A DNA stretch of 64,000 nt from NCBI GenBank assembly GCA_963707505.1, contig CAVPQB010000006.1, positions 576,001-640,000 of the forward strand. Direction: 5' to 3'. Numbering within the stretch: position 1 is the stretch's first letter; each line of letters opens with the position of its first letter. A program made the position numbers and the translations under genes. The notes below the pieces were generated by a model. The model saw only the letters and a program-made list of their open reading frames with translations, was not told where the DNA came from and made no database searches. This DNA is from an uncultured Gemmatimonadales bacterium. GTDB lineage: Bacteria > Gemmatimonadota > Gemmatimonadetes > Gemmatimonadales > Gemmatimonadaceae. Below are positions 5,999 to 28,606 of this stretch, in pieces.

Positions 5999-7002
5999 GG
6001 GGTCAGGTCTTGCCCCGTGCGCCGCACCCAGTCGTTGCAGGTTTTCGCTACACGTGGCGTGGATATCACCGCGCACGCAATGGGCCATCGGCGACATCGT
6101 GATGGTCATGTCCAGACCATTGCGTCTTCAATTTCCCGGCGCTCTCTATCACATCACATCGCGTGGAGACGGCCGGGAGCCGATATACCTCGACGACAGC
6201 GATCGAACCGAGTTCCTCGCGATCCTGTCGCGCGTCAGCGAGCGGTACGGTTGGTCATGCCACAGTTACTGTCTCATGACCAACCACTATCACCTACTGA
6301 TGGAAACGCACGCGGCCACTCTTGCGCGCGGCATGCGGGACCTGAACGGTGTGTATACGCAGCGCTTCAACCGTGCACATGGGCGCGTCGGCCACGTGTA
6401 CCAGGGGCGCTACTCAGCCGTCCTCGTGCAGAAGGAGCGGCATCTTCTCGAGGTACTGCGATACATCGTGTTGAATCCGGTGCGTGCGCAGATGGTGTCC
6501 GATGCCGCGGACTGGCCCTGGAGCAGCTATCGCGCGGCGCTTGGCCTGGTATCGTCGCCGCCATGGCTACTGACGGATCGACTTGCTGCGATCTTCGGCA
6601 ACGGTGCAGAGGGAAGGCGCCAGTTCACACGTTTTGTGGAGGATGGTGTGGGCGGCCCATCCTGCTGGCGGAATCTCAAAGGTCAGATCTATCTCGGAGA
6701 TCCGGGCTTCGTCTCGGAAGCGCAGGGGCGTATCGCTGCCGACGCACCCGGCATGAGCGAAGTACCTGAGGTGCAGCGACGTCGTCGCCATGCGCCGAGC
6801 GAGCGATGGGAAGAGCATTACCCCGTGTACCGCAACCGGGCAGACCGGGACCGGGCGATCGTTGATGCGTTCACGGATGTGTCGATGAGTGGCGGCAACA
6901 CCATGCGCGCAATTGCGGAACACTTTGGTATCCATTACTCGCGCGTGAGCCGGATCATAAGCAACGCAGAGCGAGCGCGCGCACGGGGCAAGACCTGACC
7001 CC
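5999..7002 (+). mobile_element. RAYT element bounded by perfect 24-bp terminal inverted repeats
   Basis: ggggtcaggtcttgccccgtgcgc (5999-6022) and gcgcacggggcaagacctgacccc (6979-7002) enclose the transposase; its stop codon lies inside the right repeat. Confidence 0.85.
6108..6998 (+). CDS. REP-associated tyrosine transposase (RAYT/TnpA-REP, HUH Y1) with C-terminal HTH
   Basis: MSRPLR..PGALYHITSRG, CLMTNHYHLL (HUH), YIVLNPVRA, WPWSSY; C-terminal MRAIAEHFGIHYSRVSRII. Confidence 0.92.
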   Translation: MSRPLRLQFPGALYHITSRGDGREPIYLDDSDRTEFLAILSRVSERYGWSCHSYCLMTNHYHLLMETHAATLARGMRDLNGVYTQRFNRAHGRVGHVYQGRYSAVLVQKERHLLEVLRYIVLNPVRAQMVSDAADWPWSSYRAALGLVSSPPWLLTDRLAAIFGNGAEGRRQFTRFVEDGVGGPSCWRNLKGQIYLGDPGFVSEAQGRIAADAPGMSEVPEVQRRRRHAPSERWEEHYPVYRNRADRDRAIVDAFTDVSMSGGNTMRAIAEHFGIHYSRVSRIISNAERARARGKT

Positions 7003-7037: not shown

Positions 7038-9962
7038 TCATCGTCGTTCGCCCTTCCCGTCAGCTTCAACCGCTCCCGCTGCTCCCGCCCTCCTCGGATC
7101 GGCACCCGCGGTTACAGTCCTGTCACTGAACGTGATCGCAGCGGCGTAGCCCATCCGGAGCTCGCCCGGTAGCGAGATGAAGCGGAGATGGTGACCGAAT
7201 CGTTCTAGACCACGATCGACACTCGGCGCAAATCCATCCTCCAGCTCCACCACGAAGTCGCTGCGATTGCCAACGCGCTCGCGCGAAAGAAGGAAACGGG
7301 GAAGCTCGATGGCGCGTTGAACGTCAAGCTTCTGATCCAGCACTCCCTCGACGATGCTGTATACAGCGGACGTGATCCACGAGTTGCCTGCGGCGCCAGC
7401 CGCAAGCACCGGACGAAGCTTAGCGCCGGATCCCTTGAAGACGATCGTAGGCGCAAGCGTGCTGCCGTTGCGAGCATACGGTGCGCGACCTCCGAACGCG
7501 GCGCTGTCGCTGCCGTACGACGTGACCTTGTCGTTGTAGAGGAAGCCGAGTCCCGGTGACACGTAGAAGTTCCCGCCCCAGGTGCCGAGCGTCTGCGTCA
7601 CAGCAACGACATTGCCATCTGCATCACCGACCGTGAATGCGGTGGTGCCTGTGCGGTGACAGTCTCGCTCGCCATCTTCGGCGTCCGTGCCGCCACATTC
7701 CGCTGCAACCGTGCTACCCACATCCGCTCCACTTTGCTTACCGCCACTGTCGCTCGCTGCACTGCCTGAACTATCACTCGCAGCCGCACCAGTGCGTGCC
7801 TTTGCGCACTTCGGCGTGTCACCGCTCAGCTCGTTGCTCGTGAGCGCGCGCTGCGCATCGAAGCAATTCCATCGTGCACGCGCACTGTCCTTGCTCGTGA
7901 ACGCGCTGATGTTGACCGGCCAGAGGCCGGGATCTGCGATGCGGTTGCGCGCCGATGGAACGAGCTTCCACGCTTCGATCATCGCGTGCACGGTGGCCGC
8001 ATCTTCAGTATATGACGGGAGCCGCGGCAAACGCTCGAGCATGTTGAGTTGCGCAACGAGTGTCGCGCCGCCCGAAACTGGAGGCGCGCTCGAGTAAACA
8101 GTAAAGCCGCGGTAACTCCCCGCAACCGGCTCGCGCTCGGCTGCATAATAGCGCATGAGATCACTCATGCGCATCGCATTTCCGTGTCCGCGCAGATCGG
8201 CAACCATCCGCTGGCCGACGGCCCCGCGGTACACTGCATTGGCGCCGCTGTCGGCAATCTGCTTGAGTGACCATGCGAGATCGGGATTGCGGAGCGTATC
8301 GCCGGCGTGGAGTGGCTCGCCATTACGGAAGAAAAGCTTGCGGCTTCCCTCGTACTTGAGGAAGTGCTCTCGCTCCGTCGCGAGCGTGGTGGCAAGACCA
8401 TCGCTCACGACGTATCCGTTCGTAGCGGCACGAATCGCGGGCGCGACGAGATCGGCCCAGGTCACCTTGTGACTTCCGTATTCCTTCCACGCCTTGTGCA
8501 TCCCCGCGATCGTGCCCGGTACATTCGGGAGCACCGGGCCATCATCGGGATATCCGCCATCGGAGAGTATCGCGTGCTCGTTGGTGAGGACGTCCTGCGG
8601 CAGCCGCGTCATGAACTCGATGACGACCGGGCGCGGCATCGAGTCGAGCCGGATGAGCATCTCGCCGTATCCGCCGATCCCGCTCGCATCGGGCTCTACG
8701 ACGCCGAGTGCAAACGACACCGCTACGGCGGCGTCGACAACATTTCCACCCTTTCGCAGGATCTCGAGACCAGCCTCCGTGGCAACCGGATTGGCGCTCG
8801 AGACAGCAGCGTGTCCGGTGGCTGGTTCGCGCAGCGGCGGACGGCGCAACAACATCTCGTGCACGACCTTCGCGAGATCATCGTCGGACTTCGCCGCGAG
8901 CGCGTGCGGACGAAAAGTATCGCGGAGTGTCTCCCACTGCGCGTGACGCGATGCCGCATCCGGAGTCGAGTAATACAATCGTGCCGTGCGCTGCCACGCC
9001 GCATCGAATTGGGCAGCATTGCGATCGCGACGATCCACCGCGATCGTCAGCTTGGCGGAGTTTCCACTGTCGGGCGCGGGCGGTGCAGACACGTACCACA
9101 GCGCACCCGCGTCCTTCGGCACCGAGCCAGCCGCGCGATCACCCAGACGGTCGGGATCGCCGTTGTAGCCAGGCGGTGGTGGTGGGAGCTCGACGAGGGC
9201 GAGAGTGCTTCCGTTGGGCGACCACGATGGCGCAGCGCGTCGCGCGCTGACGAGATTCACGTAATCATTTTCCGGCGTGGTGACCCAGACACCGGCCGGC
9301 CCGCTCCTCGTGCCGAATGCGAGTCTGCGTCCGTCCGGTGACCATGCTGGATGCTCGACGTCGCGGTTGCTCACGACAGTGTAGGTGGAATCGCCATGCA
9401 GCAGGGAAATGCGAAGTGTTCGGCCTTTCTCCGTGATCGCCACGAACGCGAGCTGCTTGCCGTCCGGCGCGAACGCTGGCCAGCCCTCGGCGCCTGTCTT
9501 CGACTTGGTGAGGCGTCGCTCGTGTCCATCTGGCGAGCGAAGGTAGATTCGCGCTGTGGGGCCACTGCCGCGGACAAAGGCCAGCGTGCCGTCCGCCGCG
9601 AGTGCGGGGCTGCTCTCCCAGGTGTCGGAATCGGTCACGCGCTGCGGAGCACTCGCTGCCCCGTTTCCTGCGGCGCCGAGCCGCACCCTGTAGAGTCGGG
9701 AGCCGCCATCACGATTGGATGCGAATATCAGGGAGTTGCCGTCCGCGCTCCACGCGGGATCGCGATCCCATGCCGCTCCCGAAGTGATCTGGATCCAGCT
9801 CGTGGTGTCACGCGGAGAGCGCTGCACCCAGATGTCACCGTCGATAGCCAGTGCGAGCCGGCCGTCCGGCCCATACGCCGCGTCCTGTACGCCGCTGGTC
9901 GGCGAGCCGGTACTGACCACGGTCTGGAGGACGAGCAACATGGCTGCGAGCGGAAACATCAC
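7038..9962 (-). CDS. Exported PD40/TolB-like beta-propeller fused to a gamma-glutamyltransferase (Ntn-hydrolase) domain
   Basis: Signal peptide; PAWSADG/PAFAPDG/PAWSPDG repeats; GGNVVDAAVAVSFALGVVEPDASGIGG; GTTAFTVGDADGN; GADPRR. Confidence 0.85.
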   Translation of the reverse strand: MMFPLAAMLLVLQTVVSTGSPTSGVQDAAYGPDGRLALAIDGDIWVQRSPRDTTSWIQITSGAAWDRDPAWSADGNSLIFASNRDGGSRLYRVRLGAAGNGAASAPQRVTDSDTWESSPALAADGTLAFVRGSGPTARIYLRSPDGHERRLTKSKTGAEGWPAFAPDGKQLAFVAITEKGRTLRISLLHGDSTYTVVSNRDVEHPAWSPDGRRLAFGTRSGPAGVWVTTPENDYVNLVSARRAAPSWSPNGSTLALVELPPPPPGYNGDPDRLGDRAAGSVPKDAGALWYVSAPPAPDSGNSAKLTIAVDRRDRNAAQFDAAWQRTARLYYSTPDAASRHAQWETLRDTFRPHALAAKSDDDLAKVVHEMLLRRPPLREPATGHAAVSSANPVATEAGLEILRKGGNVVDAAVAVSFALGVVEPDASGIGGYGEMLIRLDSMPRPVVIEFMTRLPQDVLTNEHAILSDGGYPDDGPVLPNVPGTIAGMHKAWKEYGSHKVTWADLVAPAIRAATNGYVVSDGLATTLATEREHFLKYEGSRKLFFRNGEPLHAGDTLRNPDLAWSLKQIADSGANAVYRGAVGQRMVADLRGHGNAMRMSDLMRYYAAEREPVAGSYRGFTVYSSAPPVSGGATLVAQLNMLERLPRLPSYTEDAATVHAMIEAWKLVPSARNRIADPGLWPVNISAFTSKDSARARWNCFDAQRALTSNELSGDTPKCAKARTGAAASDSSGSAASDSGGKQSGADVGSTVAAECGGTDAEDGERDCHRTGTTAFTVGDADGNVVAVTQTLGTWGGNFYVSPGLGFLYNDKVTSYGSDSAAFGGRAPYARNGSTLAPTIVFKGSGAKLRPVLAAGAAGNSWITSAVYSIVEGVLDQKLDVQRAIELPRFLLSRERVGNRSDFVVELEDGFAPSVDRGLERFGHHLRFISLPGELRMGYAAAITFSDRTVTAGADPRRAGAAGAVEADGKGERR

Positions 9963-9985
9963 TGGGTGATCTCCTTGAGTGTTCG

Positions 9986-10081
9986 GGGGTCAGGTCTTGC
10001 GCCGTGCGCGGTCAAACGCGCGCGCGGTTTAGCGAAACACTGCAATGGCCGGGAGCGGCGCACGGCGCAAGACCTGACCCC
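9986..10081. mobile_element. 96-bp non-autonomous (MITE/REPIN-like) derivative of the RAYT element
   Basis: 24-bp arms at 9986-10009 and 10058-10081, one base different from the RAYT TIR; reverse complement of 10030-10081 matches 5999-6050 at 45/52 nt. Confidence 0.85.
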
Positions 10082-10089
10082 CCGAATGC

Positions 10090-10479
10090 TTATGGTATAT
10101 ACGCGATGCAGTCGATCTCTACTCGCAGTCCGTCGCCCGGCAGGGCCGCCGCCTGTACAGTTGTGCGAGCGGGGCGGTGATCGCCGAACACGCGACCATA
10201 CACAGCGTTCATCCGGCTGAATTCATTCATGTCGATGAGAAACACGCCGCAGCGCAGCACATGCTGCAAGCTTGATCCCGCCGCCTCGAGTATGGTCTGC
10301 AGGTTCCTGAGGCACTGCTCCGTCTGACTCTCGACATCTGCGCCCGCCATGTGATTCGTTGCCGGATCGAGCGCGCCCTGTCCCGAGACGAACACCAGTC
10401 GCTCGAATCCCATCGCGGGGGAGTAGGGGCCAAGCGGCTTGGGTGAGCCGCTGGGTGTGATGGGAAAGTGGTCAGTCAC
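10090..10479 (-). CDS. RidA/YjgF/UK114 family protein
   Basis: PLGPYSPA, FVSGQ, MNAVYG, PARTTVQ, VEIDCIA. Confidence 0.92.
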   Translation of the reverse strand: MTDHFPITPSGSPKPLGPYSPAMGFERLVFVSGQGALDPATNHMAGADVESQTEQCLRNLQTILEAAGSSLQHVLRCGVFLIDMNEFSRMNAVYGRVFGDHRPARTTVQAAALPGDGLRVEIDCIAYIP

Positions 10480-12954: not shown

Positions 12955-13006
12955 GAAACACTGGGCGGCATCCGCGGCTCCAGCCGCAGATGCCGCCCAG
13001 TGTTTC
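12955..13006. terminator. Long hairpin between convergent genes (bidirectional terminator candidate)
   Basis: gaaacactgggcggcatc / gatgccgcccagtgtttc (18 bp perfect) plus inner gcggct/agccgc. Confidence 0.7.
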
Positions 13007-28536: not shown

Positions 28537-28558
28537 GCGTGTTGCGGAGGCGGCTTGC

Positions 28559-28596
28559 GGGTCAGGTCTTGCCCCGCAACGGGCAAGACCTGACCC
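28559..28596. repeat. Minimal hairpin made of the RAYT TIR core
   Basis: gggtcaggtcttgccc-cgcaac-gggcaagacctgaccc; 16-bp perfect stem identical to the TIR core. Confidence 0.88.
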
Positions 28597-28606
28597 CAAT
28601 CACTCG

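Follow-up and report, generated by a model that had tools for sequence, protein, structure and literature searches.

The 96-bp unit and its setting

The window (the whole stretch of 64,000 nt that was analysed) contains a full TIRtron with its transposase gene and, between a RidA-family gene and a gamma-glutamyltranspeptidase-family (GGT) gene, a 96-bp gene-less miniature of the same family in the opposite orientation. The features are as follows.

5999..7002, plus strand: full TIRtron, 1004 bp, the only intact one in the assembly
5999..6022, plus strand: left TIR of the full element, beginning GGGGWSAS, with C at position 16
6070..6077, plus strand: left copy of an 8-bp direct repeat (element positions 72-79), a likely deletion end point
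6108..6998, plus strand: Y1 (HUH) transposase gene, 296 aa, with His60-Tyr-His62 and Tyr119
6978..6985, plus strand: right copy of the 8-bp direct repeat (element positions 980-987), which overlaps the right TIR at its inner edge
6979..7002, minus strand: right TIR of the full element, with C at position 16
7038..9962, minus strand: PD40 and GGT-family gene, downstream neighbour of the miniature
9979..9985, plus strand: right-arm flank, 6 nt of which are tandemly duplicated in one close-strain contig (run X2, depth 6.6)
9986..10081, minus strand: 96-bp gene-less TIRtron miniature (S class), its left end at 10081
9986..10009, plus strand: right arm of the miniature, 24-bp TIR, with G at TIR position 16 (window 10001)
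10010..10057, minus strand: core of the miniature, 48 bp, homologous to left-end positions 25-72 of the full element (33/48)
10058..10081, minus strand: left arm of the miniature, 24-bp TIR, with G at TIR position 16 (window 10066)
10090..10479, minus strand: RidA-family gene (PF01042), upstream neighbour, its stop 8 nt from the left arm
28558..28597, no strand assigned: collapsed hairpin of the family, 40 bp; in L117 and G014 a 96-bp copy occupies this site

The arms of the 96-mer were complementary at 24 of 24 positions (25 when one flank base was added), and each differed from the TIR of the 5999-7002 element solely at TIR position 16, in agreement with the original prediction of a perfect stem changed at one shared position in both arms. 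This perfect 24-bp stem lies between two co-oriented minus-strand genes, with a ribosome-binding-like site of the GGT-family gene 9 nt from the right arm, and the DNA hairpin fold of the unit was estimated at -39 to -43 kcal/mol. Neither a GTAG tag nor a conserved self-stem was found in the 24-bp arm. The reverse complement of 10030-10081 matched 5999-6050 at 45/52 positions, reproducing the left-end similarity described earlier, but the conserved tract proved longer than the 52 nt then proposed, extending over about 79 nt (63/80). The match of about 25 nt at the other end was likewise recovered (24/25), but it comprises merely the TIR and no right-subterminal sequence, with 31/52 beyond it. 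A genome search with the 96-mer retrieved six further copies of the same size class (83-88% match, E 1e-22 to 1e-28), indicating that its similarity is not due to chance.

The full element and its transposase

The full element is bounded by perfect 24-bp TIRs at 5999 and 7002, and the stop codon of its transposase gene sits within the right TIR, while a longer start is possible at 6054. The encoded protein scored 45.6 bits against PF01797 (Y1_Tnp, cut-off 23) and 86.8 against the NCBIfam model NF047646 (REP_Tyr_transpos, cut-off 80), and its Tyr119 aligned with Tyr115 of E. coli TnpA-REP (4ER8). Two HTH families expected of a TIRYT matched weakly at the expected C-terminal place, below their cut-offs (HTH_28, 20.8 bits against 25; HTH_23, 19.8 against 24.6). 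Gemmatimonadota MAGs were among the sources of the closest named homologues, and a plasmid search returned a single 47% match. A lectin match was rejected as a low-complexity artefact, as no stretch passed. No second active transposase paralogue was found in the assembly (G000, 83% complete), which holds just a broken distant gene at C6:766490-766690; the surrounding region (L203, C6:766300-766800) shows that this broken Y1-transposase gene carries its own GGGGTCAG-type ends.

The gene at 6108-6998 had been labelled a RAYT. Judged from its sequence, however, it is of the TIRYT type (with the anatomy of a TIRtron and of subclass 2.1.2), being a Y1 gene bounded by GGGGWSAS TIRs and not a REP-flanked RAYT. 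TIRtrons, TIRYTs and TIR repeat families were described by Di Nocera et al. 2013 (PMC3733652), and TnpA-REP subclass 2.1.2 by Quentin et al. 2018 (PMC6006769). By eye, the TIR seems to be the source of a -35-like box in many homologues (left ends of L122-L200), lying about 17 nt before a -10-like box that is followed by the start codon; such a TIR-borne box would permit autoregulation.

The family in the genome and the origin of the 96-mer

The family occupied 20 loci in G000, in four size classes (1004, 166-169, 96-97 and 40-47 bp) together with solo arms: 1 full element, 7 S copies (96-97 bp), 5 M copies (166-169 bp), 1 truncated copy, 3 hairpins and 3 solo arms. The M copies keep both real ends, one of the five with its tip lost. 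A metagenome scan added 9 S copies, all C/C at position 16.

Deletion between the two 8-bp repeats predicts a product of exactly 96 bp, consisting of element bases 1-79 and the last 17, and this product is identical to the 96-mer at 79/96 positions. The geometry bears out the original proposal of a deletion derivative of the element family in opposite orientation, and the 96-mer was likely formed long ago by deletion between these repeats. The 96-mer may also be a fold-back product, for which the same length is predicted, but the M class (166-173 bp) requires deletion and leaves the left end near position 72-74, about as in the 96-mer. By contrast, a direct copy of the neighbouring element, as first suggested, did not fit: the core differed from that element at 15/48 positions and from the other miniatures at 10-16, the nearest cores being those of other miniatures, and the 96-mer is therefore a long-standing member of the family and not a recent copy.

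The dimorphism at position 16

The 13 two-armed S, M and full copies of G000 comprised 5 G/G, 6 C/C and 2 G/C at position 16, and the arms were concordant (Fisher p=0.021, or 0.028 if two sister copies count as one), with no significance in the 7 S copies alone (p=0.14) or in G014 (p=0.3). Within-genome tests were used here because Fisher tests pooled across genomes are confounded by genome. Across all genomes, the 47 two-armed elements included 16 G/G, 24 C/C and 7 others. Positions other than 16 showed 8 paired changes (at positions 1 and 3) and 17 single ones in these elements, and 4 of the 32 oriented elements were mismatched at position 16. In all 4 mismatched S and M copies the G was on the left arm and the C on the right, a number of cases too small for significance.

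The expected arm covariation across copies was thus observed, and the same-site copies L120 and L114 agreed with it. Two further parts of the original prediction have to be revised. What had appeared as a private C-to-G change of the 96-mer is a family-wide dimorphism, with 2/13 copies here mismatched, and the supposed direction is probably reversed: the full elements of G003 and G017, other members of the genus, are G/G and G007 shows G in one of its arms, which suggests that G is probably the older state and C the newer (G007 and G017 are unpublished genomes, used for this polarity argument alone).

The arms were far more constant than the cores, with 4 mismatches in 572 positions versus 50 in 336. 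The same was true between copies at one site, where G000 and G014 differed at 0/48 arm versus 5/48 core positions, and G000 and L120 at 2/48 (positions 16 and 81) versus 15/48. The core has conserved blocks; no helix-forming covariation was detected in it, the 3 best pairs being isolated, and these blocks are conserved as putative binding sites would be. Bare hairpins lacking the left-end tract made up 15 of the 47 two-armed elements.

The ridA-GGT site and other sites in relatives

L120 and L114, two metagenome records with 86% identity across the locus, each have an S copy in the same position and orientation, with C/C arms that differ from those of the 96-mer at positions 16 and 81 only, and the element is also present at this site in the run X2 contigs of a close strain. 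An empty ridA-GGT allele was looked for in relatives, and no clean one was found: G014, G015 and G016 lack the 96-mer and hold 67-73 other bases with a decayed C-type arm (TIR 1-18), joined to the same right junction as the 96-mer. The decayed arms scored 14, 14 and 15 of 18, a score of 14 having been reached in 13/5000 shuffles, and they may have arisen by collapse through CCCC runs.

At three other sites a hairpin in one genome corresponded to an S copy in another, and no clean empty allele was found among the bridged sites. Nor was a target-site duplication detected, the longest direct repeat being 0-3 nt both in 46 family elements, where it resembled shuffled pairs, and in 49 wider elements. 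G015 and G016 contained few, partly decayed family copies, and no close transposase was found there. At G000:C1:97300-97370, where L121 holds an S copy, there is a 12-bp tandem array of GGGGAC-like units, perhaps a ladder remaining after element loss.

Junction duplications at TIR ends

Many TIR ends had just before them a tandem repeat of the neighbouring flank together with a variable first part of the TIR, often in several rungs. Such junction-spanning duplications were found at 41 of 121 usable ends and 33 of 79 homologous loci, compared with 28 of 11,055 control positions (0.25%), the remaining ends of the 79 loci having no recognisable TIR, being cut off or containing N. They were present in cultured isolates as well (L127, L190 and L196). 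Within G000, duplications occurred at 5/34 family ends versus 3/312 ends of other stems of 14 bp or more (p=3e-4).

Parsing of 301 motif hits, some of them not true ends, with three duplicate loci and two window copies dropped, yielded 103 rungs at 69 ends, and 50 of the rungs had no microhomology; an outward-reading control (0/301) was not independent and was left unused. The outer edges lay 6-11 nt outside the TIR with their weight peaking at 6-10, a range whose lower limit is built in because the rung test requires 5 flank bases. The inner edges peaked at 1-2 and at 7 and trailed off to about 44; in the range 4-13 the A|G step was included in 32 of 43 cases (null mean 9.5, maximum 17), while one end in L067 had an inner edge at 7-10 without this step. 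An inner edge after base 7 corresponds to a C|T step on the outward strand. TnpA-REP has been reported to cut at C|T, which yields a 5'-phosphotyrosine as well as a 3'-OH that can serve in priming or in strand transfer (PMC8266576). The junction duplications likely map the nicks of the enzyme. The 96-mer has no rung at either end in G000; in the single contig of the close strain listed above, 6 flank bases are duplicated at its right junction.

Identity of at least 9 flank bases on both arms was seen in 2 of 46 elements (L038:1501-1724 in G016; L073:1536 in G018), in which a variant first or third TIR base was also identical on both arms, as would be left by arm-to-arm copying. Flank copying between arms was rare, with p=0.04 in the genus set and no excess at -9..-5 in the 49 wider elements.

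No description of such ladders was found in the openly accessible literature that was covered, and Figure 9 and Additional file 5 of PMC3733652 may bear on their novelty. A CGTC-tagged repeat doublet unrelated to the TIR (L202, C5:78168-78257) also has a junction ladder, of three rungs, and the ladders may therefore be a general effect of hairpins or HUH enzymes. This repeat class is reported to have no transposase of its own.

Proposed explanations of the matched arms

The reading we prefer, and to which we give an about even chance, is that the 96-mer is an old deletion miniature whose arms are kept matched by enzyme nicking and recopying, mostly from the partner arm. The predicted enzyme would sit on the TIR through its HTH and make nicks at one or both of two places: on the inward-reading strand, 6-11 nt beyond the TIR, and on the outward-reading strand, at the C|T step that separates TIR bases 8 and 7. 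The 3'-OH would prime a short re-synthesis and then attack the 5'-phosphotyrosine, leaving a tandem rung, and a longer re-synthesis with a template switch would overwrite one arm by another. Enzyme recognition would constrain all TIR bases but 16, a constraint that is needed because unbiased copying predicts paired changes widely, whereas in G000 these were found at position 16 only. At this position an older G family is likely being taken over by C. Copies would be reduced at their sites to hairpins and solo arms, and these remnants would then decay.

Generalised to the TIRYT enzymes, the proposal becomes distinctly more tentative. They may be TIR-recognising HUH nucleases that make a measured outside nick and an inside C|T nick and re-synthesise their own ends by self-priming, with the ladders recording abortive cycles, and the same reaction may refresh arms, swap copies at fixed sites and be able to move cargo between two miniatures. 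If true, this would represent a transposition chemistry unlike DDE cut-and-paste and IS200/IS605 peel-and-paste, with cut sites that can be read from genomes.

A rather unlikely alternative accepts the same deletion origin but attributes the matched arms to host template switching between imperfect inverted repeats (quasi-palindrome correction), and the rungs to slippage of the polymerase where it meets a hairpin or bound protein. Correction of imperfect inverted repeats by template switching has been reported in proteobacteria (PMC5941160), such switching can yield compensatory changes (PMC8794818), and the hairpin-forming capacity of the unit and the ladder of the CGTC-type repeat, a non-family sequence, agree with it. 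It accounts poorly, however, for the rarity of rungs at other stems of 14 bp or more and their frequency at 1-kb elements with widely separated arms, for the half of the rungs without microhomology and their sharply placed edges, and for the few and partly decayed copies of G015 and G016, two genomes in which the search gave no close transposase.

More doubtful still is simple inheritance, in which a G/G donor (the older state or a lost paralogue) gave rise to the 96-mer or replaced it entirely and the mismatched copies are recombinants of G/G and C/C units. The G/G full elements of G003 and G017 support this, although their left ends differ, and no G/G full element was found in the 83%-complete assembly. 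In the metagenome set, L120 has 1 core difference from a copy located elsewhere but 4 from L114 at its own site, which points to whole-unit replacement. On the core tree (49 columns) monophyly of the G/G copies was not rejected (p-AU 0.076), but a clade of left-arm-G copies was rejected (p-AU 0.018) and the position-16 state required 6 changes, an unclustered pattern (shuffled mean 5.9). Arm state and core kinship were discordant, the nearest pair (C6:725337/752402) being G/C versus C/C and near-sister M copies in G014 being G/G, G/C and C/C.

A very improbable reading is that compensatory mutations arose one after the other because a perfect stem was selected, whether for an RNA hairpin in the ridA-GGT interval or for the single strand on which the enzyme acts. 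Although the perfect stem between co-oriented genes, the decay of the collapsed solo arms at the site in G014-G016 (14-15/18) and the compensatory changes reported as common in REPINs (PMC3116915) fit it, mismatched copies persist (4/32), single-arm changes exceed paired ones 17 to 8 at other positions, relatives manage without the stem at the ridA-GGT site, the position-16 dimorphism is shared by elements of 1 kb and of 168 bp, and the core is without helix-forming covariation.

Comparison with known systems

The family to which the 96-mer belongs has been described, and the unit is unremarkable within it; TIR dimers of TIRtrons have been published before. As in the TIRtrons and TIRYTs of PMC3733652 and PMC6006769, a Y1 HUH gene with a putative C-terminal HTH-like tail lies within GGGGWSAS TIRs, and TIRs are dispersed singly and as dimers (PMC3733652), here over the 20 loci of G000. 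In contrast, the account in the accessible text of PMC3733652 counts the repeats without tracing them to deletion end points, and includes no cut site, junction duplication or arm dimorphism. What is new here is the junction duplications at TIR ends as a comparative signature of cut sites.

Similar to REPINs, the unit is about 100 bp long and extragenic, with conserved inverted arms and a variable spacer (PMC3116915; bioRxiv 2021.07.10.451892), and it shares with them, as reported, a single-copy enzyme, long residence at a site and compensatory changes (PMC3116915; bioRxiv 2021.07.10.451892; PMC8266576), conserved arms with such changes being known for REPINs (PMC3116915; bioRxiv 2021.07.10.451892; PMC5581495). 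Unlike REPINs as described in these sources, its arms are not GTAG-tagged palindromes, its spacer is the left end of the parent element, about 20 copies are present and not hundreds, and the enzyme has a C-terminal extension, a sequence feature that points elsewhere than a group 2 or 3 RAYT. RAYT group 1 is similar by description, being widespread, low in flanking-repeat counts and the most IS-like (Bertels et al. 2017, PMC5581495).

With the MITEs of DDE insertion sequences, the unit has in common that it is a gene-less, TIR-bounded deletion derivative with a full element in the same genome (bioRxiv 2021.07.10.451892), and the copies in G000 are short, gene-less, TIR-bounded and multicopy, with a cognate transposase present. 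However, the family differs in its HUH instead of DDE enzyme, the lack of a target-site duplication, its old divergent copies, the lack of clean empty sites among those bridged and its one-sided junction duplications.

The accessible text of PMC3733652 and PMC6006769 leaves open which substrate the TIRYTs, a large class of HUH transposases, act on and where they cut it. The 96-mer offers a minimal substrate, and the ladders predict cut positions that can be tested by an existing cleavage and strand-transfer assay (PMC8266576).

Genomic distribution and neighbouring observations

Other long hairpins in the window, at 1-50 and 12955-13006 (22-bp and 25-bp arms), are unrelated to the family. In the assembly, about 17% of the sequence (C6:265-790 kb and C1:24-54 kb) accounts for 19 of the 20 family loci, which fall mostly on one side of the likely origin, given that dnaA is located at C6:301.6-302.1 kb. 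Two near-identical M copies 1.3 kb apart (C6:786004/787461) have 10 right-flank bases in common, as if the flank travels with the unit. In addition, two inverted S copies bracket a 3.1-kb module (L201, C6:725337-728641) that encodes a PadR regulator and a MacB/FtsX-like permease, the latter split over two ORFs. Between the flanks of this module G015 carries another gene, suggesting possible cargo movement between miniatures.
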